From NCBI RefSeq assembly GCF_044324875.1, contig NZ_CP172185.1: a DNA stretch of 64,000 nt; one strand, given 5' to 3'. The notes under the pieces were generated by a model that saw nothing but the letters and a program-made list of their open reading frames with translations, ran no database searches and was not told the origin of the DNA. How positions within the stretch are numbered: position 1 is the first letter of the stretch; every line of letters begins with the position of its first letter. The translations under genes and the position numbers were made by a program. This DNA is from Escherichia coli (GTDB taxonomy: Bacteria; Pseudomonadota; Gammaproteobacteria; Enterobacterales; Enterobacteriaceae). Shown piece by piece: positions 1,972 to 14,475 of the stretch.

Positions 1972-3659
1972 TGAAAAACGTTTTATGTGAAACCGCCTCC
2001 GGGCGGTTTTGTCGTTTATGGAGCGTGAGGAATGGGTAAAGGCAGCAGTAAGGGGCATACCCCGCGCGAAGCGAAGGACAACCTGAAGTCCACGCAGTTG
2101 CTGAGTGTGATCGATGTCATCAGCGAAGGGCCGATACAAGGACCGGTGGATGGATTAAAAAGCGTGCTGCTGAACGGTACGCCGGTGCTGGACAGTGAGG
2201 GGAATACCAATATATCCGGCGTCACGGTGGTATTCCGGGCCGGTGAGCAGGAGCAGACGCCGCCGGAGGGATTTGAATCCTCCGGCTCCGAGACGGTGCT
2301 GGGTACGGAAGTGAAGTACGACACGCCGATTACCCGGACCATCACGTCGGCAAACATCGACCGTCTGCGCCTGACCTTCGGTGTGCAGGCACTGGTGGAA
2401 ACCACCTCAAAGGGGGACCGGAATCCGTCGGAAGTCCGCCTGCTGGTTCAGATACAGCGTAACGGTCGCTGGTTAACGGAAAAAGACATCACCATTAAGG
2501 GCAAAACCACCTCGCAGTATCTGGCCTCGGTGGTGGTGGGTAACCTGCCGCCGCGCCCGTTCAGTATCCGGATGCGCAGGATGACGCCGGACAGCACCAC
2601 AGACCAGCTGCAGAACAAAACGCTCTGGTCGTCATACACCGAAATCATCGATGTGAAACAGTGCTACCCGAACACGGCACTGGTCGGTGTGCAGGTGGAT
2701 TCGGAGCAGTTCGGCAGCCAGCAGGTGAGCCGTAATTATCATCTTCGCGGGCGCATTCTGCAGGTGCCGTCGAACTATAACCCGCAGACGCGGCAATACA
2801 GCGGTATCTGGGACGGAACGTTTAAACCGGCATACAGCAACAACCCGGCCTGGTGTCTGTGGGATATGCTGACCCATCCGCGCTACGGCATGGGGAAACG
2901 TGTTGGCGCAGCGGATGTGGATAAATGGGCGCTGTATGTCATCGGCCAGTACTGCGACCAGTCAGTGCCGGACGGCTCTGGTGGCACGGAGCCGCGCATC
3001 ACCTGTAATGCCTGGCTGACCACACAGCGTAAGGCGTGGGATGTGCTCAGTGATTTCTGCTCGGCGATGCGCTGTATGCCGGTATGGAACGGGCAGACGC
3101 TGACGTTCGTGCAGGACCGACCGTCGGATAAGGTGTGGACCTATAACCGCAGTAATGTGGTGATGCCGGATGATGGCGCGCCGTTCCGCTACAGCTTCAG
3201 CGCCCTGAAGGACCGCCATAATGCCGTTGAGGTGAACTGGAGTGACCCGGATAACGGCCAGGAGACGGCGACAGAGCTTGTGGAGGACACGCAGGCCATT
3301 GCCCGTTACGGTCGTAACGTCACGAAGATGGATGCCTTTGGCTGTACCAGCCGGGGGCAGGCACACCGCGCCGGGCTGTGGCTGATTAAAACAGAACTGC
3401 TGGAGACGCAGACCGTGGATTTCAGCGTGGGTGCTGAAGGGCTTCGCCATGTACCGGTGCAAAATGGCATCTGAATCGATCGCAGTTTGGCATTCGAATC
3501 GATCATGATTTGGCATCCATCTCCGATCACAGTTTGGCATCACAATCGATCACGATTTGGCATGCTTCCGATCATTGATTGGCATCCTGCCAGTCACTCC
3601 GGGAATTAACTCTTTTCACCACAGTCTCCATTGCCGTGTTTAAACCAGTGGAGACGTCA

Positions 3660-5225
3660 ATGTCCAGAAAGAGAAAATCCAGGAGCACTATGGAAACCTG
3701 TTTTAAGATCCTTCAGCTCAAGTTCGACAAGAAGCTGACTAACCGTTGTATCGGACTGACGTTACACATCAGCGCCTCAACCGTTTTTGAGGTTCTTGCC
3801 CGCTTCAAAGCCTCTTCTCTGTCATGGCCATTACCTGCTGATATATCCCATGACACGCTGGAGAAACTCATTTTTCCGCCCAAAGACACCTTTGCATCAG
3901 AGCTTGTAATGCCTGACATGTTGTACTTCGATACGGAAATGAGAAAACCAGGTGTGACGCGGCAACTGTTGTGGATGGAATACAAGGCACAGGCGGGTAA
4001 CAAAGCGATGGGATACTCGCACTTCTGCCGTTGCTACCGGGAGTGGAAAAAAACGCGACGTCTCTCCATGCGCCAGGAGCATCGTGCCGGCGAAAAGCTT
4101 TTTATCGACTTCTGTGGTCCTACGGTTCCTGTTATTAATCCGGACACCGGTGAGATACGCCGCGTGGCAATCTTCGTGGCCGTAATGGGGGCGTCCAACT
4201 ATACCTACGTTGAAGCGTGCGAAGGTCAGGACATGATGTCATGGTTAAATGCCCACAGCCGTTGCCTGACCTTCCTGGGCGGCGTACCGAAGCTGCTCAT
4301 CCCCGATAACCTCAGAAGCGCAGTGAAAAAGGCCGATCGATATGAGCCTGTCATCAACGACAGTTATCAGGCACTGGCTGAGCACTATGGCACGGTTATC
4401 ATCCCGGCCCGACCACGCAAACCTAAAGATAAACCAAAAGCAGAAAACGGCGTCCTCATCGTTGAACGATGGCTTCTTGCCCGCATCCGTAATGAAACCT
4501 TCCACACGCTCAGGGCGCTGAATGCGCGCCTTAGGGAGTTACTGACAGACATGAATAACCGGCCAATGAAGGGGTACGGCAATCAAACCCGTGCAGAACG
4601 CTTCCGCATACTGGATGCGCCAGCACTCTCTCCGCTGCCTCTGGCACCTTATGAATACACGGAATACAAAGCTGTGAAGGTTGGCCCTGACTACCACGTT
4701 GAATATGCCCGTCACTGGTACTCCGTTCCACACGAACTGGTCGGTCAGCGTCTGTCACTGAAGGCGGGGCAGTCGGTGGTACAGCTCTGGCACAAGGGGC
4801 AGTGTGTGGCGCAACATCCGCGCAGCACACATGAATATAAACACACAACCAATCCGCTTCACATGCCAGAGCGCCACCGGCAGCACGGGACATGGACACC
4901 GGAACGCCTGATCGAGCAGGGAAAACGTACGGGCCCGTCCACAGGCCGGGTGGTTGAATCCATGCTGAAGGCAAAACCCCATCCGGAACTGGCTTATCGT
5001 GCAGTTCTGGGGCTGCTGGCACTTCAGAAAAAATACGGCCCGGAACGGCTGGAAAAGGCCTGTTACGTTGCCCTGCACTATAACGCCCCTGACAGACGCT
5101 TTATCGACAATCTGCTGCGTCACCATCGGGAGAACCTGGAGCTTCCATTATCCCGCCAGGGCGAACAACATCCGGCATATGCTTCAGAGCATGAAAACCT
5201 GCGTGGTCCGGGCTACTACCACTGA
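3660..5225 (+). CDS. istA: IS21-family transposase IstA
   Basis: About 520 aa with N-terminal HTH region (...LSWPLPADISHDTLEKL...) and an IstA-like central/C-terminal region; start chosen at ATG 3660, upstream alternative start possible. Confidence 0.75.
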   Translation: MSRKRKSRSTMETCFKILQLKFDKKLTNRCIGLTLHISASTVFEVLARFKASSLSWPLPADISHDTLEKLIFPPKDTFASELVMPDMLYFDTEMRKPGVTRQLLWMEYKAQAGNKAMGYSHFCRCYREWKKTRRLSMRQEHRAGEKLFIDFCGPTVPVINPDTGEIRRVAIFVAVMGASNYTYVEACEGQDMMSWLNAHSRCLTFLGGVPKLLIPDNLRSAVKKADRYEPVINDSYQALAEHYGTVIIPARPRKPKDKPKAENGVLIVERWLLARIRNETFHTLRALNARLRELLTDMNNRPMKGYGNQTRAERFRILDAPALSPLPLAPYEYTEYKAVKVGPDYHVEYARHWYSVPHELVGQRLSLKAGQSVVQLWHKGQCVAQHPRSTHEYKHTTNPLHMPERHRQHGTWTPERLIEQGKRTGPSTGRVVESMLKAKPHPELAYRAVLGLLALQKKYGPERLEKACYVALHYNAPDRRFIDNLLRHHRENLELPLSRQGEQHPAYASEHENLRGPGYYH

Positions 5226-5241
5226 CAGAAGGAACAACAGT

Positions 5242-5997
5242 ATGAGTGATAACCTGTTAAACAAACTGACCCAACTGAAACTCCCGGCGATGGCCGGGAG
5301 CCTGATACGGCAGCGGGAAACGCCTCAGACCTACGACGAACTGTCGTTCGAGGAAAGGCTGACGCTGCTGGTTGATGACGAGCTTCTGAGCAGGGAAAAC
5401 AGCCGTGTGGCACGGTTGAGAAAAAATGCCGGCCTGAAATACCAGGCAACACCGGAAGGGCTGCGCTATCCGGCCTCAAGAGGTCTGCGGGCTGAACAGA
5501 TGAGAGAACTGCTGAACGGCCACTACATAACCCACAGGAAAAACCTGCTGATAACCGGTCCGACAGGATGTGGCAAGAGCTGGATAGCCAATGCGCTGGG
5601 CGAACAGGCATGTCGACAGAAACACAGCGTCCGGTACTGTAGAACCGGGCGATTACTGGAACAACTGGCTCAGGGACGTGTTGATGGCAGCTGGCTGAAA
5701 TATCTGAAACAGTTGCAAAAAATACAGGTTCTAATCCTGGACGATCTGGGGCTGGAACAGTTAAGTAACGCCCAGTGTAATGACCTTCTGGAGCTCATAG
5801 AGGATCGTTACGGACAAAGCAGCACGATAGTGGTAAGCCAGTTCCCGGTAGATAAATGGCATGGTCTGATGGAGAACCCAACAACAGCAGATGCCATCCT
5901 GGACAGACTGGTACATAACTCACACCGAGTGGTCCTTCAGGGAGAGTCACTGAGGAAAAATCCCCCGGTAGTGGAAAGCAGCGAAAAAACGCGTTAA
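5242..5997 (+). CDS. istB: IS21-family helper ATPase IstB
   Basis: 251 aa; Walker A GPTGCGKSWIANALG; Walker B LILDDLG; typical IstB size and position after istA. Confidence 0.85.
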   Translation: MSDNLLNKLTQLKLPAMAGSLIRQRETPQTYDELSFEERLTLLVDDELLSRENSRVARLRKNAGLKYQATPEGLRYPASRGLRAEQMRELLNGHYITHRKNLLITGPTGCGKSWIANALGEQACRQKHSVRYCRTGRLLEQLAQGRVDGSWLKYLKQLQKIQVLILDDLGLEQLSNAQCNDLLELIEDRYGQSSTIVVSQFPVDKWHGLMENPTTADAILDRLVHNSHRVVLQGESLRKNPPVVESSEKTR

Positions 5998-8218
5998 AAA
6001 GCGGTAGAAAAAGTTAAGTTCCCGGTTGATCGAATGGATGCGAATCGCTGATCGGACTTCGATGCCAATCCGTGATCGAATAGAGCGGAATACGCATACC
6101 GGGCGATGTCATTGAAATCTGTGATGATGACTATGCCGGTATCAGCACCGGTGGTCGTGTGCTGGCGGTGAACAGCCAGACCCGGACGCTGACGCTCGAC
6201 CGTGAAATCACGCTGCCATCCTCCGGTACCACGCTGATAAGCCTGGTTGACGGAAGTGGCAATCCGGTCAGCGTGGAGGTTCAGTCCGTCACCGACGGCG
6301 TGAAGGTAAAAGTGAGCCGGGTTCCTGACGGCGTTGCCGAGTACAGCGTGTGGGGGCTGAAGCTGCCGACGCTGCGCCAGCGCCTGTTCCGCTGCGTGAG
6401 TATCCGTGAGAACGACGACGGCACGTATGCCATCACTGCCGTGCAGCATGTACCGGAAAAAGAGGGCATCGTGGATAACGGGGCACACTTTGACGGTGAC
6501 CAGAGCGGCACGGTGAATGGTGTCACGCCGCCAGCAGTGCAGCACCTGACTGTCGAAGTCACCGCAGACAGCGGGGAGTATCAGGTACTGGCCCGCTGGG
6601 ACACGCCGAAGGTGGTGAAAGGCGTGAGTTTCATGCTTCGCCTGACCGTGGCAGCGGATGACGGCAGTGAGCGGCTGGTCAGCACGGCCCGGACGACGGA
6701 AACCACATACCGCTTCAGGCAGCTGGCGCCGGGGAACTACAGGCTGACAGTCCGGGCAGTAAATGCCCGGGGGCAGCAGGGAGACCCGGCGTCGGTATCG
6801 TTCCGGATTGCCGCACCGGCAGCGCCGTCGCGGATTGAGCTGACGCCGGGCTATTTTCAGATAACCGCCACGCCGCATCTTGCCGTTTATGATCCGACGG
6901 TGCAGTTTGAGTTCTGGTTCTCGGAAAAGCGGATTACCGATATCAGGCAGGTTGAAACCACAGCCCGTTATCTTGGTACCGGAAGTCAGTGGCTTGTCTC
7001 CGGCCAGAATATTAAACCTGGCCATGATTATTACTTTTATATCCGCAGTGTTAACACTGTCGGTAAATCGGCATTCGTGGAGGCAGTCGGTCGGGCGAGT
7101 AATGATCCTGCCGGTTACCTTAATTTTTTCAGGGGGGCGATAAATAAAACGCATCTGGGACGGGAGATCAATGAACGCATTGATGCCTCTGCACGGCGCA
7201 CTGAAGTTGAGCAACTGGAGAATGCGATTAACCGCGAAATGACGCAGCTGGAGAATGCGATTAACCGCGAAATGACGCAGCTGGAGAAAGATGTGAGGCA
7301 GCGTGCGGAGCGTGATATCGCAGAGGTGACGAAAAAAATCACGGCGTCTGAAAACAGCATAACGGAACTGGTGGCGAAAAAGAGCGGTGAACAGTCGCTG
7401 GCCATTGCGAAAGTCGACAGGAAAGTTGACAGCGTGAGCAGTGAAATCCGGCAGACAGTAAGCAGGAGCACGGAGGAGAACAGCCGACAGATAGCGCAGG
7501 TCAGGCAGTATGTTGATGATAAAAGTGCGCAAATAAGTACTGTTGTGGCGAAAAAGAGCGGTGAACAGTCAATGGCCATTGCGGAAGTTGACAGAAAAGT
7601 TGACAGGATGGGCAGCGAAATCCGGCAGACAGTAAGCAGGAGCACGGAGGAGAACAGCCGACAGATAGCGCAGATCAGACAGTATGTTGATGATAAGGGA
7701 AGTCAGATCAAACAGAGCACGGATAAAAAACTGGGATCCTGGAATGCCAGCATTGAGCAGATACAGAAAGTTCAGGAGGACACGCGCCGGAACCTGAACA
7801 GCATGTGGGCTGTGAAGCTGCAGCAGACACGGGATGGACGTCTCTATATTGCAGGTATTGGTGCCGGAATCGAAAATACGTCTGACGGAATTCAGAGTCA
7901 GATCCTGATGCAGGCAGATCGTATTGCGATGATTAACCCGGAAAATGGCAATACAACACCTTTGTTTGTGGCTCAGGGTGATCAGCTGTTCATGAATGAT
8001 GTTTTCATGAAAAAACTGACCGTGGATTTTGCCAGAGTGACGGGAGATATCCGGTCAGATAATTTTCATTCCGGTAGTCCGGGGTGGCGTTTATCAAGAA
8101 ACGGCAGCCTTGAAATTAACTCAGGAAGGCCCGGCGCAGGCCGCCTGTTTTTCAATGGCGAGCGAATCGACGTATATGACGATAACAATGTGTTAAGAGT
8201 ACGACTGGGGAGACTGTA

Positions 8219-9483: not shown

Positions 9484-10812
9484 ATGGCGGCTGTAAAAAT
9501 TTCAGGCGTGCTCAGGGACGGAACCGGAAAACCGGTACCGGGATGCATTATTGAGCTGAAAGCGAAGAGAACCAGCGAGACAGTCATCGCCACGACAGTG
9601 GCTTATGGCATGCCGGAAGAGACGGGGAGTTACAGTATGGATGTGGAGCCAGGAATATACAGGGTGACACTCAATACAGAAGGTTACCGTCCTTCGTATG
9701 TGGGAGATATCGTGGTCAGGGAGGATTCTTCACCGGGAACACTGAATAAATTTCTGATGGAGATGGAAGATGCTCCTTATTATCCGAAGGCGTTGTCAGA
9801 GCTGGAGGCTGTGGTGCAGTCCATACTGCACAGAGCAGAGTCCGCGGCATCTGAGGCGGAGGAAGCCCGGAAGCGAGCAGCATCTGCCCGGGGACCACGA
9901 GGAGAGAAAGGGGATACCGGCGCTCGTGGTGAAAGAGGCATTACCGGGCCACAGGGGCCAAAAGGTGAAACAGGAGCACGTGGCCCGGCAGGACCACAGG
10001 GACCAAAAGGTGAAACAGGTGAACGCGGTCCGGCAGGTCCACAGGGACCAAAGGGCGATACAGGTGAACGCGGCCCGGCAGGTCCACAGGGACCAAAAGG
10101 TGAAACAGGTGCACGTGGTCCGGAAGGTCCACAGGGAGCAAAAGGTGAAACAGGTGAACGCGGCCCGGCAGGTCCACAGGGAGCAAAGGGCGAAACAGGT
10201 GCACGTGGTCCGGAAGGCCCTCAGGGTCTGAAGGGAGAAAAGGGTGAGCGAGGAGAAAAAGGCCCTAAGGGGGATAAAGGAGATCCGGGAGGTCCACAGG
10301 GACCAAAAGGTGAAACAGGTGAACGTGGCCCGGCAGGTCCACAGGGACCAAAAGGTGAAACAGGTGAACGTGGCCCGGCAGGTCCACAGGGACCAAAGGG
10401 CGATACAGGTGAACGCGGTCCGGCAGGTCCACAGGGGCCAAGAGGGTATACAGGTGAACGCGGGCCGACAGGTCTACAGGGGCCAAGAGGGTATACAGGT
10501 GAACGCGGGCCGGCAGGTCCACAGGGGCCAAGAGGAGAAGCGGGGCGGCCAGCGAGCGTCGGAAGTGTTTATTCCGTGGGGTCTTATGTTCTGGGGATCA
10601 TAGAACGAAATCATGAGATAACAAATACCCGTCAAATACCCGGGTATCGTATCAGACAGGCCGTTATTGTGTCGTCGTCATCGGATAAACTTACAGATAT
10701 CCGCTTTTTATTTGGCAATCCTATGCTTGGTACATGGATGTTATGCACAACTAACATGGCGGTGAATAATATCAGTGGGACGATTTGGGGCCTGTTTCAG
10801 AGAATACTGTGA
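9484..10812 (+). CDS. Prophage side tail fiber protein with collagen-like Gly-X-Y repeat region
   Basis: N-terminus [29 protein letters not shown]... resembles the Stf N-terminal domain of E. coli prophages; about 220 aa of GxY triplets ([19 protein letters not shown]...). Confidence 0.8.
9886..10548 (+). repeat. Tandem, roughly 45-bp coding repeats (collagen-like Gly-X-Y) inside the tail fiber gene
   Basis: Repeated [15 protein letters not shown] units at nucleotide level; the ORFs in other frames and on the opposite strand over this stretch are repeat artefacts. Confidence 0.8.
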
Positions 10813-11002
10813 CAGGGGGAGAAATGAATGAAGGTCGATAAAATCACGTCACCAGTGTGGGCTGACAGGGGTCATACGACCATAAACTGTATAGTGAAGT
10901 TTTCAGACGCGGAAACAGAATGTGTATTTACAGCAAGTGCGGATGATCCGTAACCGGCTCATTTAAACCGTCTGGTCTGTTTCCTCCGGCTCTACAAAAA
11001 TA

Positions 11003-11680
11003 ATGTCCATCATTTTTAATGGACACTATCGTATGAAACACCGGACCTGGATCACTGAAGCTTTACGTCTTCACTTTGAAGAACATTTACCCCGGGTTGT
11101 GGCCGGGCGTCGCCTGGGTGTACCAAAATCAACAGTTTGTAGTATGTTCGTGCGCTTTCGGAGAGCTGGCCTTTCGTGGCCTTTGCCCGCAGGCATGTCG
11201 GAGCAGGAACTTGATGCCTGCCTTTACGGACAATTTTCCACGGTACCAGTCGTACGTCCTGAAAGCACCGTTATATCCGAAGCCCCCGTGGTAAAAAAAC
11301 GTCCCCGGCGGCCCAACTTCCCTTATGAGTTTAAAATCGCCTTAGTGGAGCAGTCACTGCAGCCCGGAGCCTGTGTGGCGCAGATCGCCCGGGAAAACGG
11401 AATCAACGATAACCTGCTCTTCAACTGGCGCCATCAATACCGGAAAGGTGGCCTGCTGCCTTCCGGAAAAAATATGCCGGCACTGCTTCCCGTGACGTTA
11501 ACGCCGGAGCCGGATAATAAAATCCCGGCCCCCGCACAGGAACCAGAGCAGATAAATACACCGTCCGACAGTCTGTGTTGTGAGCTGGTTCTGCCGGCCG
11601 GAACTCTCAGGCTTAAAGGTAAACTGACGCCGGCGTTATTACAGACACTTATCCGCGAAATAAAAGGGAGCAGCCACTGA
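11003..11680 (+). CDS. tnpA: IS66-family accessory protein (orfA/TnpA) with N-terminal HTH extension
   Basis: C-terminal part ...PNFPYEFKIALVEQSLQPGACVAQIARENGINDNLLFNWRHQYRKG is IS66 orfA-like; N-terminal part carries an LSWPLPA HTH-like motif. Start codon uncertain. Confidence 0.7.
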   Translation: MSIIFNGHYRMKHRTWITEALRLHFEEHLPRVVAGRRLGVPKSTVCSMFVRFRRAGLSWPLPAGMSEQELDACLYGQFSTVPVVRPESTVISEAPVVKKRPRRPNFPYEFKIALVEQSLQPGACVAQIARENGINDNLLFNWRHQYRKGGLLPSGKNMPALLPVTLTPEPDNKIPAPAQEPEQINTPSDSLCCELVLPAGTLRLKGKLTPALLQTLIREIKGSSH

Positions 11681-12027
11681 TGATATCTCTCCCTGCAGGT
11701 TCGCGTATCTGGCTGGTTGCAGGTATCACCGATATGCGAAATGGCTTTAACGGCCTGGCATCAAAAGTTCAGAACGTCCTGAAGGATGACCCGTTCTCCG
11801 GACACCTGTTCATCTTCCGCGGACGCCGGGGTGACCAGATAAAAGTGTTGTGGGCTGACAGTGACGGACTGTGCCTCTTCACCAAACGCCTGGAGCGGGG
11901 CCGCTTCGTCTGGCCAGTCACCCGTGACGGCAAGGTGCACCTTACTCCGGCTCAGTTATCCATGCTTCTTGAAGGTATCAACTGGAAGCACCCGAAACGA
12001 ACGGAACGCGCTGGAATCCGCATATAA
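11680..12027 (+). CDS. tnpB: IS66-family TnpB (Orf2)
   Basis: 115 aa MISLPAGSRIWLVAGITDMRNGFNGLASKVQNVL...; overlapping start with orfA stop. Confidence 0.85.
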   Translation: MISLPAGSRIWLVAGITDMRNGFNGLASKVQNVLKDDPFSGHLFIFRGRRGDQIKVLWADSDGLCLFTKRLERGRFVWPVTRDGKVHLTPAQLSMLLEGINWKHPKRTERAGIRI

Positions 12028-12046
12028 CCCGTTGTAAAGTGAGGAT

Positions 12047-13618
12047 ATGGACACCTCACTTGCTCATGAGAACGCCCGCCTGCGGGCACTGTTGCAGACG
12101 CAACAGGACACCATCCGCCAGATGGCTGAATACAACCGCCTGCTCTCACAGCGGGTGGCGGCTTATGCTTCCGAAATCAACCGGCTGAAGGCGCTGGTTG
12201 CGAAACTGCAACGTATGCAGTTCGGTAAAAGCTCAGAAAAACTTCGTGCAAAAACCGAACGGCAGATACAGGAAGCACAGGAGCGAATCAGCGCACTTCA
12301 GGAAGAAATGGCGGAAACGCTGGGTGAGCAATATGACCCGGTACTGCCATCCGCCCTGCGCCAGTCTTCAGCCCGTAAACCGTTACCGGCCTCACTTCCC
12401 CGTGAAACCCGGGTTATCCGGCCGGAAGAGGAATGCTGTCCTGCCTGTGGTGGTGAACTCAGTTCTCTGGGATGTGATGTGTCAGAGCAACTGGAGCTTA
12501 TCAGCAGCGCCTTTAAGGTTATCGAAACACAACGTCCGAAACAGGCCTGTTGCCGGTGCGACCATATCGTGCAGGCACCAGTACCTTCAAAACCCATTGC
12601 ACGCAGTTATGCCGGAGCGGGGCTTCTGGCCCATGTTGTCACCGGGAAATATGCAGACCATCTGCCGTTATACCGCCAGTCAGAAATATACCGTCGTCAG
12701 GGAGTGGAGCTGAGCCGTGCCACACTGGGGCGCTGGACAGGTGCTGTTGCTGAACTGCTGGAGCCGCTGTATGACGTCCTGCGCCAGTATGTGCTGATGC
12801 CCGGTAAAGTCCATGCTGATGATATCCCCGTCCCGGTCCAGGAGCCGGGCAGCGGTAAAACCCGGACAGCCCGGCTGTGGGTCTACGTCCGTGATGACCG
12901 TAACGCCGGTTCACAGATGCCCCCGGCGGTCTGGTTCGCGTACAGTCCGGACCGGAAAGGTATCCATCCACAAAATCACCTGGCCGGTTACAGCGGTGTG
13001 CTTCAGGCCGATGCTTACGGTGGTTACCGGGCGTTATACGAATCCGGCAGAATAACGGAAGCCGCGTGTATGGCTCATGCCCGGAGAAAAATCCACGATG
13101 TGCATGCAAGAGCGCCCACCTACATCACCACGGAAGCCCTGCAGCGTATCGGTGAACTGTATGCCATCGAGGCAGAGGTCCGGGGCTGTTCAGCAGAACA
13201 GCGTCTGGCGGCAAGAAAAGCCAGAGCCGCGCCACTGATGCAGTCACTGTATGACTGGATACAGCAACAGATGAAAACACTGTCGCGTCACTCAGATACG
13301 GCAAAAGCGTTCGCATACCTGCTGAAACAGTGGGATGCACTGAACGTGTACTGCAGTAATGGCTGGGTGGAAATCGACAACAACATCGCAGAGAACGCCT
13401 TACGGGGAGTGGCCGTAGGCCGGAAAAACTGGATGTTCGCGGGTTCCGACAGCGGTGGTGAACATGCGGCGGTGTTGTACTCGCTGATCGGCACATGCCG
13501 TCTGAACAATGTGGAGCCAGAAAAGTGGCTGCGTTACGTCATTGAACATATCCAGGACTGGCCGGCAAACCGGGTACGCGATCTGTTGCCCTGGAAAGTT
13601 GATCTGAGCTCTCAGTAA
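12047..13618 (+). CDS. tnpC: IS66-family transposase TnpC
   Basis: 523 aa; N-terminal coiled coil, Cys cluster CCPACGGEL...CCRCDH, DDE-type catalytic region. Confidence 0.85.
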
Positions 13619-14475
13619 ATATCAATACGGTTCTGACGAGTCGCTTACGATGATCCTGAGTCTTACGGTCGTGAAATATTTGAAGCCTGCATAAGAGGTG
13701 ATGCAGGGCCGGTAGGTGAGTACCGGGCAAATGATGATATGGCTGTGGAAGAAGCACGCAGGATGAAAAACGCGGAGATAAATGCCTGGCGTGATGCGAT
13801 GGAGGCGTCAGGGTATGTTTTTGAGCACAGAGGACGGAAATGGGATTATGGAAAGGAAACCATGACACGTCTTGGAATGTCGGCATCAGCGGCCAGAGGC
13901 GGTGTGTTGCCGGAAGGATTTTTCTGGACGGACGCAGAGAATAATGATGTACCGATGACGGCAGATGAACTGATATCCCTGAGTGATGCTGCTGGTAAAG
14001 CGATGTTCAGGAAAGGCCTTGAAATACATATAAGGCAAAGGGAGATGAAAAAGGCAATAGCAGAACTGAGTGACAGTGAAACCATTCTGGCGTACAGGGT
14101 TGGATGGTGAAACTGATAAAAAAACCCCTCTGAAAATTCTGTCAGAGGGGGGCAAGGATCTATATTTATTATGCGGTAATGCTTTCACTCCGGTAATTAA
14201 TTTCAGTGATTAACTGCTTTCGATCAATAAAGGAATTGCAAAAAGGTGATCTTGTTCACGACATTGTGGATGATAATATGCCTGATGTCTGAATCCGGAA
14301 ACAGTGATCTGGCGGGTTTCATGTGAAGTTGACGGATAAAAAATCCGCACGACCAGACAGACGTGCGGTTTACGAAATTCGTAACAAGAGGCTTTTCTAG
14401 GGATCACGTGGTGCGTGCCACGTGAAATTTTTGTAGCGCAAAATGTGTAATGTGTAAATACAAGGAAGGAAAAAG

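Follow-up and report, generated by a model that had tools for sequence, protein, structure and literature searches.

The window analyzed here, a 64,000-nucleotide stretch of an Escherichia coli contig (NZ_CP172185.1), carries an IS66 family and an IS21 family insertion sequence, which lie approximately 5 kb from each other (Table 1). The plus-strand open reading frame (ORF) at positions 11003 to 11680 is tnpA of an intact copy of ISCro1, an IS66 family element. This identification follows from the near identity to known ISCro1 copies, the inverted repeats, the 8-bp target-site duplication, the host ORF restored upon excision and the IS66 domains of the gene products. ISCro1 spans positions 10950 to 13648 (2699 bp), and its three genes tnpA, tnpB and tnpC follow each other in the order found in IS66 elements. 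The inverted repeats are imperfect and begin with GTAA(G/C)CG, as is usual for the family (IRL, GTAACCGGCTCATTTAAACCGT; IRR, GTAAGCGACTCGTCAGAACCGT). The tnpB start codon overlaps the tnpA stop codon (TGATG). The tnpC product, which PGAP names "IS66-like element ISCro1 family transposase," also matched the Pfam families LZ_Tnp_IS66, zf-IS66 and DDE_Tnp_IS66_C. Deletion of the element together with one copy of GATGATCC restored an intact 191-aa DUF4376 tail-fibre-assembly ORF.

ISCro1, its TnpA (WP_001682408.1, identical to the protein encoded here) and the long-TnpA family NF038385 are already catalogued, and the same 678-nt ORF is called tnpA in another ISCro1 copy. The window copy shows 99.6 to 100% nucleotide identity to PGAP-labelled ISCro1-family copies (99.9% at 100% coverage), which were used for this comparison instead of the ISfinder reference entry. 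Gene order, inverted repeats, 8-bp duplication and the 225-aa tnpA call are all as in the catalogued element; the sole particularity of the window copy is its insertion site in a prophage tail-fibre-assembly gene. The segment from 10900 to 13800 was matched in 3017 of 5426 complete E. coli genomes, and near-full-length copies were present in at least 1328 of them, with many different flanks. Other E. coli copies with different flanks also start at the equivalent of position 10950.

The IS21 family element interrupts a lambda-like J gene, and its excision restores a 1180-aa J ORF. The istA ORF is open from position 3579. At the left end of the element, we noticed direct repeats that would be expected to serve as IstA binding sites by analogy to other IS21 elements, for which the role of terminal direct repeats has been described (PMC10122671).

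Table 1. Features of the IS21 family element and of ISCro1 in the window
Feature	Position	Strand	Evidence
IS21-family element, ISSso4 type, TG...CA ends, flanked by TACCGG	3458..6096	+	PGAP names in other genomes; terminal repeats
Direct repeats ATCGATCnnnnTTTGGCAT, five to six, 22-24 bp spacing, left end of IS21 element (candidate IstA sites)	3454..3586	+	Sequence
istA, IS21 family transposase	3660..5225	+	NF033546 E 9.7e-85; rve and Mu-transpos_C_2 domains
IstA HTH-1 region aligning with the TnpA N-domain	3711..3875	+	BLASTP; NF038385 positions 7-71, E 9e-15
istB, 3' of istA	5242-5997
Target-site duplication, left copy, 8 bp, GATGATCC	10942..10949	.	Sequence reading; excision restores host ORF
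Left inverted repeat of ISCro1, GTAACCGGCTCATTTAAACCGTCTGG	10950..10975	+	Agrees with right end, IS679 ends and E. tarda element ends
Leader hairpin GTCCAT-N8-ATGGAC over SD-like GGAC just upstream of ATG 11033	11004..11023	+	Conservation in IS679 and E. tarda
tnpA, long form, 215 aa (probable start)	11033..11680	+	NF038385; leader conservation
N-terminal IstA-HTH-1-like domain	11033..11239	+	BLASTP to IstA E 2e-10; phmmer; AF2; dN/dS 0.23
Linker, poorly conserved, predicted disordered, ends in basic KKRPRRP	11240..11305	+	pLDDT <50; dN/dS 0.72
HTH_Tnp_1 domain, IS3 OrfA-type HTH, common to all IS66 TnpAs	11306..11479	+	PF01527 E 8.6e-15
tnpB, IS66 Orf2-like, 115 aa	11680..12027	+	PF05717 (TnpB_IS66) E 4.7e-40
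tnpC, IS66 DDE transposase, 523 aa	12047..13618	+	DDE_Tnp_IS66 E 2.5e-103
Right inverted repeat of ISCro1, reverse complement GTAAGCGACTCGTCAGAACCGTATTG	13623..13648	-	Sequence reading
Target-site duplication, right copy, 8 bp, GATGATCC	13649..13656	.	Sequence reading

An earlier note on this DNA had pointed out that the N termini of IS66 TnpA and IS21 IstA share the motif LSWPLPA and align over approximately 30 residues. Both peptides were indeed found in the respective genes (KSTVCSMFVRFRRAGLSWPLPAGMSEQELDACL at positions 11126 to 11224 in the tnpA ORF, plus strand; ASTVFEVLARFKASSLSWPLPADISHDTLEKL at positions 3774 to 3869 in istA). In all six reading frames of the window, LSWPLPA occurs only at these two sites, at 11171 to 11191 in TnpA and at 3819 to 3839 in IstA. 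The alignment turned out to be longer than claimed. When the 86 N-terminal residues of the tnpA ORF were compared by BLASTP with the whole IstA, TnpA residues 21 to 75 aligned without gaps to IstA residues 18 to 72, with 20 identities in 55 positions (36%; E 2e-10). In line with this, the Smith-Waterman score of 98 was not reached in any of 2000 shuffles of the 76-residue TnpA N-domain counted from Met11 (mean 29.6, standard deviation 4.6, maximum 52; Gumbel P about 3e-9).

Profile comparisons linked the two families as well. TnpA matches NF038385 (IS66_access_TnpA) with 295.8 bits over residues 13 to 206 and model positions 1 to 190, above the curated cut-off of 150, which by sequence places it among the long-form IS66 TnpAs. 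The window IstA matches the same model at positions 7 to 71, and so do the unrelated IstAs P0172 and P0252, which pass the IS21 model (positions 5 to 77; E 1e-14 and 1e-16, respectively). In the reverse direction, an ISSfl3-type long TnpA matches the NCBIfam model transpos_IS21 at positions 1 to 73 (E 3e-4); the ISCro1 TnpA N-domain gave no match to this model at E <= 1. A phmmer search with the 76-aa domain against 1.84e9 representative proteins yielded 509 matches at E <= 1e-3. Among the best 150 of them, 16 have the IstA catalytic region and another 12 show the HTH-2 motif of IstA. Thirteen proteins, 11 of them from the 112 matches whose alignment covers 55 residues or more, also resemble IS66 TnpA outside the N-domain. 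Examples of IstA matches are P0172 (52% identity; E 2e-8) and P0252 (511 aa). The others of the best 150 are short metagenomic fragments, mostly resembling IstA N termini, along with a few longer proteins that look chimeric or derive from frameshifted copies. Every classifiable protein among these 150 is an IstA or an IS66 TnpA.

Such a resemblance could in principle be that of any two small helix-turn-helix (HTH) domains, with LSWPLPA arising by chance or convergence. Pfam has no specific family for the N-domain and gives only sub-threshold or generic matches (HTH_23, Sigma70_r4, HTH_28) in both proteins, and fold searches rank many unrelated HTH regulators above IstA, as a generic likeness would predict. 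However, the conserved block extends past the HTH core into a G-L-x-W-P-L-P loop and a fourth helix (D-x-x-L-E-x-x-L-Y/F). Across 59 aligned N-domains of the two families, W49 and P50 never vary, and L13, R41, L60 and L64 reach a conservation of 90% or more. Together with the cross-family profile matches, the shuffle statistics and the composition of the 150 best phmmer matches, this makes a merely generic resemblance highly improbable, and we consider that explanation largely refuted. Moreover, since Pfam lacks a specific family for the domain, the link between the families does not stem from a broad model that both happen to match. We conclude from the profile matches, the database-wide search and the conservation into the loop and helix 4 that, at the sequence level, the N-domain of TnpA is truly and specifically homologous to IstA HTH-1. 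The non-homology that the earlier note had named as the finding that would overturn it was thus not observed.

AlphaFold2 predicted an N-domain (pLDDT >90) with helices at about residues 5 to 15, 21 to 28, 32 to 44 and 57 to 69 (numbered from Met11). The first three helices are modelled as a three-helix HTH, and the loop at residues 45 to 56 holds GLSWPLP, which includes the shared motif. When the predicted N-domain was compared with known structures, the best matches were HTH DNA-binding domains; a PDB sequence search with the TnpA profile returned no significant match. Residues 70 to 88 are predicted to be disordered (pLDDT <50), with KKRPRRP at the end. A second HTH at residues 98 to 137 corresponds to Pfam HTH_Tnp_1 and is followed by a further disordered stretch and a small beta/alpha C-terminal domain (residues 181 to 210). 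NF047595 matches TnpA residues 102 to 219. The suggestion in the earlier note of a shared DNA-binding module therefore holds for the homology, which pairwise, profile and database-wide searches all support, and for the fold, as far as it can be predicted; DNA binding by the N-domain would follow by analogy to IstA.

This analogy can be drawn from the solved IS5376 IstA (PDB 8b4h, 8q4d; PMC10122671), in which HTH-1, a linker and HTH-2 are resolved. In every IS21 terminal repeat, HTH-1 contacts one conserved box and HTH-2 another, and the linker between the two HTHs sits in the minor groove (PMC10122671). In TnpA, the N-domain is homologous to HTH-1 and the start of the linker, and in both proteins a flexible linker and a second HTH come next. 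The sequence tie to the solved HTH-1 is indirect, since the window IstA aligns with the IS5376 protein solely from residue 85 on.

The likeness is confined to this module. The second HTH of TnpA is of the IS3 OrfA type (PF01527) and not IstA HTH-2, and TnpA has neither a DDE catalytic domain nor a beta-barrel; the DDE enzyme of IS66 is the separate TnpC. HTH-2, the rve DDE domain, the C-terminal beta-barrel and the partner ATPase IstB, which characterize IstA as a whole, are thus not found with TnpA. TnpA carries HTH_Tnp_1 and a small C-terminal domain in their place and did not match NF033546 at E <= 1; it is therefore not an IstA but has one module in common with it.

The tnpA frame is open from ATG 11003, which PGAP annotates as the start (225 aa). 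The conserved start, however, is most likely ATG 11033 (215 aa), which corrects the earlier note on this point. The NF038385 match begins at residue 13 and not at residue 1, and most homologues have been annotated with the Met at 11033 as their start. The region between the two codons contains the leader hairpin, which recurs in the Edwardsiella tarda element and, with another loop, in IS679. Its predicted RNA fold has an energy of -8.6 kcal/mol (z -2.2; the E. tarda copy, z -4.3). In IS679, the ATG equivalent to 11003 is out of frame and runs into a stop codon. Furthermore, the distance between IRL and the start codon (81 to 85 bp) and the leader are common to elements with long and short TnpAs. 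A start at 11003 is unlikely on these grounds, and the conserved "MSIIFNGHYR" is better read as the leader hairpin. Because the leader is conserved and the upstream ATG is out of frame in IS679, we prefer ATG 11033, which the sequence comparison makes the probable start; the first ten codons (11003 to 11032) would then probably be non-coding. The choice between the two codons does not affect the LSWPLPA motif.

A start further downstream, at Met65 (MSEQELD) or later, would place the motif in an untranslated 5' leader, a possibility that the earlier note had raised for MSEQELDACL. There is no strong Shine-Dalgarno sequence before 11003 and the leader does contain a conserved hairpin, both of which would suit such a leader. 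The coding pattern argues strongly against it. Relative to an E. coli variant of 92% identity, codons 1 to 66 have a dN/dS of 0.23, the linker one of 0.72 and the C-terminal part one of 0.26, and relative to a Yersinia element, the differences in codons 1 to 66 are distributed over the codon positions as 20/6/43, an excess at third positions. In addition, the N-domain is retained, and many of its residues never change, in 17 homologues with 57 to 91% identity (from Escherichia, Salmonella, Pantoea, Erwinia, Yersinia, Klebsiella, Serratia, Edwardsiella and others); in most of these, Met65 is replaced by Ile or Val. The curated model, which begins well upstream of Met65, and the leader and start distance shared with short-TnpA elements also contradict a downstream start. 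Purifying selection upstream and the replacement of Met65 lead us to reject a start at this codon, and an untranslated N-terminal region is extremely improbable. We conclude that the N-terminal region is translated and under selection.

Short IS66 TnpAs (134 aa, and 141 aa in ISEc23) consist of the basic stretch, HTH_Tnp_1 and the small C-terminal domain. They align only with ISCro1 TnpA residues 87 to 212 and match NF038385 only at positions 80 to 189. Elements of this type (NF047595, ISRel24 type, for example ISEc23) resemble ISCro1 in the leader, in the distance between IRL and the start codon and in the GTAAGCG...CCGT repeat pattern, and TnpB of such E. coli elements is 66 to 76% identical. 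In contrast, their TnpAs begin at the basic stretch and lack the first approximately 85 residues of the long type, namely the IstA-like domain and the linker.

The size of typical IS66 TnpAs and the nearby IS21 element could point to a local accident, in which an IS66 element inserted into a 5' remnant of istA and a chimeric ORF was created at this one locus. Against this, the N-domain lies within the inverted repeats and the 8-bp duplication in all copies, the same 2.7-kb unit is seen with unrelated flanks in thousands of records, and diverged elements of Yersinia, Pantoea, Serratia, Edwardsiella and Salmonella keep the domain. A local fusion is thereby refuted and has practically no probability left. 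The N-domain is not, as the earlier note had offered as one option, acquired by this particular IS66 member: more than a thousand complete E. coli genomes carry the element that contains it, the domain is part of the curated family NF038385, and diverged forms occur in further enterobacterial IS66 elements, among them IS679 and those of the ISSfl3 type. If there was an acquisition, it took place in an ancestor of the long-TnpA subgroup.

Several deeply diverged lineages with long TnpAs, all of them seen in Enterobacterales, were recognized: the ISCro1 group, IS679, the ISSfl3 type (P0202), a Salmonella type (P0249) and a Serratia type (P0155). The TnpAs of IS679, P0202, P0249 and P0155 all pass NF038385. 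The N-domain thus marks out a group within the enterobacterial IS66 elements that reaches well beyond the window copy. In a neighbour-joining tree of 97 N-domains (about 66 columns, midpoint rooted, no bootstrap), all verified TnpA domains fell into a single clade that contained none of the verified IstA domains. The most economical explanation is that an IstA-type HTH-1 was captured once, long ago, in an IS66 lineage. The motif is spread across very diverse IstAs, whereas long TnpAs seem to have a narrow taxonomic range; a transfer from IS21 to an ancestral IS66 element is therefore more economical than one in the opposite direction, a point that the tree does not settle.

A close relative of ISCro1 is IS679 (IS66 family, 2704 bp, E. 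coli plasmids; TnpA also of the long type, 216 aa). Han et al. 2001 reportedly tested the three genes of this IS66 member genetically. The two elements are 93 to 100% identical from about position 11590 to the right end, including tnpC, and tnpB is identical. Over positions 11010 to 11347, which contain the N-domain and the linker, DNA identity is only 30 to 50%, and the same holds for the subterminal left end; the N-domain proteins are 26 to 38% identical. By sequence, ISCro1 and IS679 are mosaics that differ in precisely the module of N-domain, linker and left end.

Taken together, these data are very probably explained by a long TnpA of ISCro1 whose N-domain is homologous to IstA HTH-1 and which would likely act as a DNA binder with two HTHs. 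By analogy to the HTH-1/linker/HTH-2 tandem of IstA with its two boxes per terminal repeat, the HTH-1-like domain, the flexible basic linker and HTH_Tnp_1 would form one DNA-binding protein. The N-domain would give TnpA a second contact in the element's own DNA, most likely as part of a bipartite site, and this contact may support the assembly or control of the TnpC transposase complex. The left-end or leader region, which is co-inherited with the domain, would be the likeliest place for it.

As for the position of such a site, the terminal 25 bp of long- and short-TnpA elements are alike (GTAAGCG...ACCGT), and their comparison revealed no convincing extra conserved box that distinguishes the two types; therefore, no additional box in the inverted repeats explains the additional domain. 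A search of the ISCro1 ends for repeats like those of the ISSso4-type element (ATCGATCnnnnTTTGGCAT) also gave no convincing candidate. The near-identical right ends of ISCro1 and IS679, set beside N-domains as different as theirs, argue at the sequence level against specific recognition of both ends by this domain. Since the N-domains differ strongly and the right ends hardly at all, a target in the subterminal left end or the leader seems likelier than one in both inverted repeats.

The same observations would fit a protein in which the N-domain, though homologous to IstA HTH-1, is mainly a protein-protein interface for multimerisation or for docking of TnpB or TnpC, or makes TnpA a repressor of its own gene, with no part in end recognition. 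HTH-1 is also located at the protein core of the IstA tetramer, where it makes extensive protein contacts (PMC10122671), and the HTH_Tnp_1 relatives from IS2 and IS3 carry the name of repressors (NF006928 match). Besides the similarity of the inverted repeats in both element types, the N-domain co-varies between ISCro1 and IS679 only with the left end and leader, which contain the presumed promoter and the hairpin, and not with the right end. However, the predicted recognition helix (residues 32 to 44; STVCSMFVRFRRA) retains the basic and polar character that it has in IstA. We regard a regulatory or docking role as possible, if somewhat unlikely, and as a serious rival to the two-HTH DNA binder.

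A more far-reaching version of the DNA-binding model is suggested by the ISCro1/IS679 mosaic. One entire lineage within IS66 would have arisen by in-frame capture of an IS21-type end-recognition HTH-1 onto TnpA, and the module would now be a fast-evolving, exchangeable determinant of specificity for the left end or leader. This is rather unlikely in our judgment. If true, it would mean that a domain was exchanged between two unrelated IS families and that the N-domain sets immunity or cross-talk between co-resident IS66 elements.

The papers that could be searched contained no mention of the relationship between IS66 TnpA and IS21 IstA, and a prior description is possible. Little is understood of how IS66 elements move, and TnpA and TnpB have no known role. 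An IstA-type HTH-1 on the long TnpA offers a concrete and testable model, that of a bipartite DNA binder, with the IstA cryo-EM structures as a guide. Beyond providing this handle on IS66 TnpA function, the result is an annotation-level insight into a common, catalogued element: annotators should neither cut off the "extension" of long TnpAs nor take it for a product of fusion. Finally, ISCro1 and IS679 constitute a natural, near-identical pair that differs almost only in the N-domain module and is thus ideal for domain swaps.

The two IS66-family elements ISCro1 and IS679 (record NZ_CP147076.1) were near-identical in tnpB, tnpC and the right end (93-100%). In tnpA, we observed a steep gradient of identity within window 11010-11590, down to 30-50% at the linker and the preceding N-domain (the first ~70 residues of the long TnpA, homologous to the IstA HTH-1). 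ISCro1 and IS679 are recombinant mosaics. The overlap of the tnpA stop with the tnpB start suggests that the two genes are translationally coupled.

Features in the window
Feature	Position	Remark
IS21-family element, ISSso4 type	3458-6096	istA and istB; intact; TG...CA ends
Duplication TACCGG	3452-3457 and 6097-6102	6 bp; flanks the IS21-family element
DUF4376 tail-fibre-assembly gene	10828-10949 and 13657-14110	disrupted by ISCro1
Hairpin GTCCAT-N8-ATGGAC	11004-11023	ISCro1 tnpA leader; conserved
TGATG	11678-11682	tnpA stop overlapping tnpB start

The hairpin in the tnpA leader contains a Shine-Dalgarno (SD)-like GGAC, 10 nt ahead of the likely start codon ATG 11033. IS679 and an Edwardsiella element each retain it but differ in the loop; the fold z-scores are -2.2 (ISCro1), -1.0 (IS679) and -4.3 (Edwardsiella element). 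This hairpin may control translation or serve as a protein binding site. On the Edwardsiella tarda plasmid NZ_CP116676.1 (3501-6940), the tnpA of a related long-TnpA IS66 element is broken by an IS3-family element ~60 codons into the N-domain.

Removal of ISCro1 and one duplication copy yielded an intact 191-aa DUF4376 ORF. This gene belongs to the same prophage as the lambda-like host-specificity J gene, which is split by the ISSso4-type element and regained a 1180-aa ORF upon in silico excision. Since each of the two genes is IS-interrupted, we conclude that the prophage tail region received two independent IS insertions. The left end of the ISSso4-type element harbors five to six direct repeats ATCGATCnnnnTTTGGCAT at 22-24 bp spacing, and its right end two to three inverted copies. 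The 442-aa ORF at window 9484-10812, which lies upstream of the tail-fibre-assembly gene, includes an extended stretch of collagen-like G-x-y repeats, known from some phage tail fibres.

On the E. coli plasmid NZ_AP022070.1, IS100 (IS21 family) is inserted in the tnpC region of a short-TnpA IS66 element, a further instance of nested IS66 and IS21 elements. A group II intron adjoins this IS66 element.
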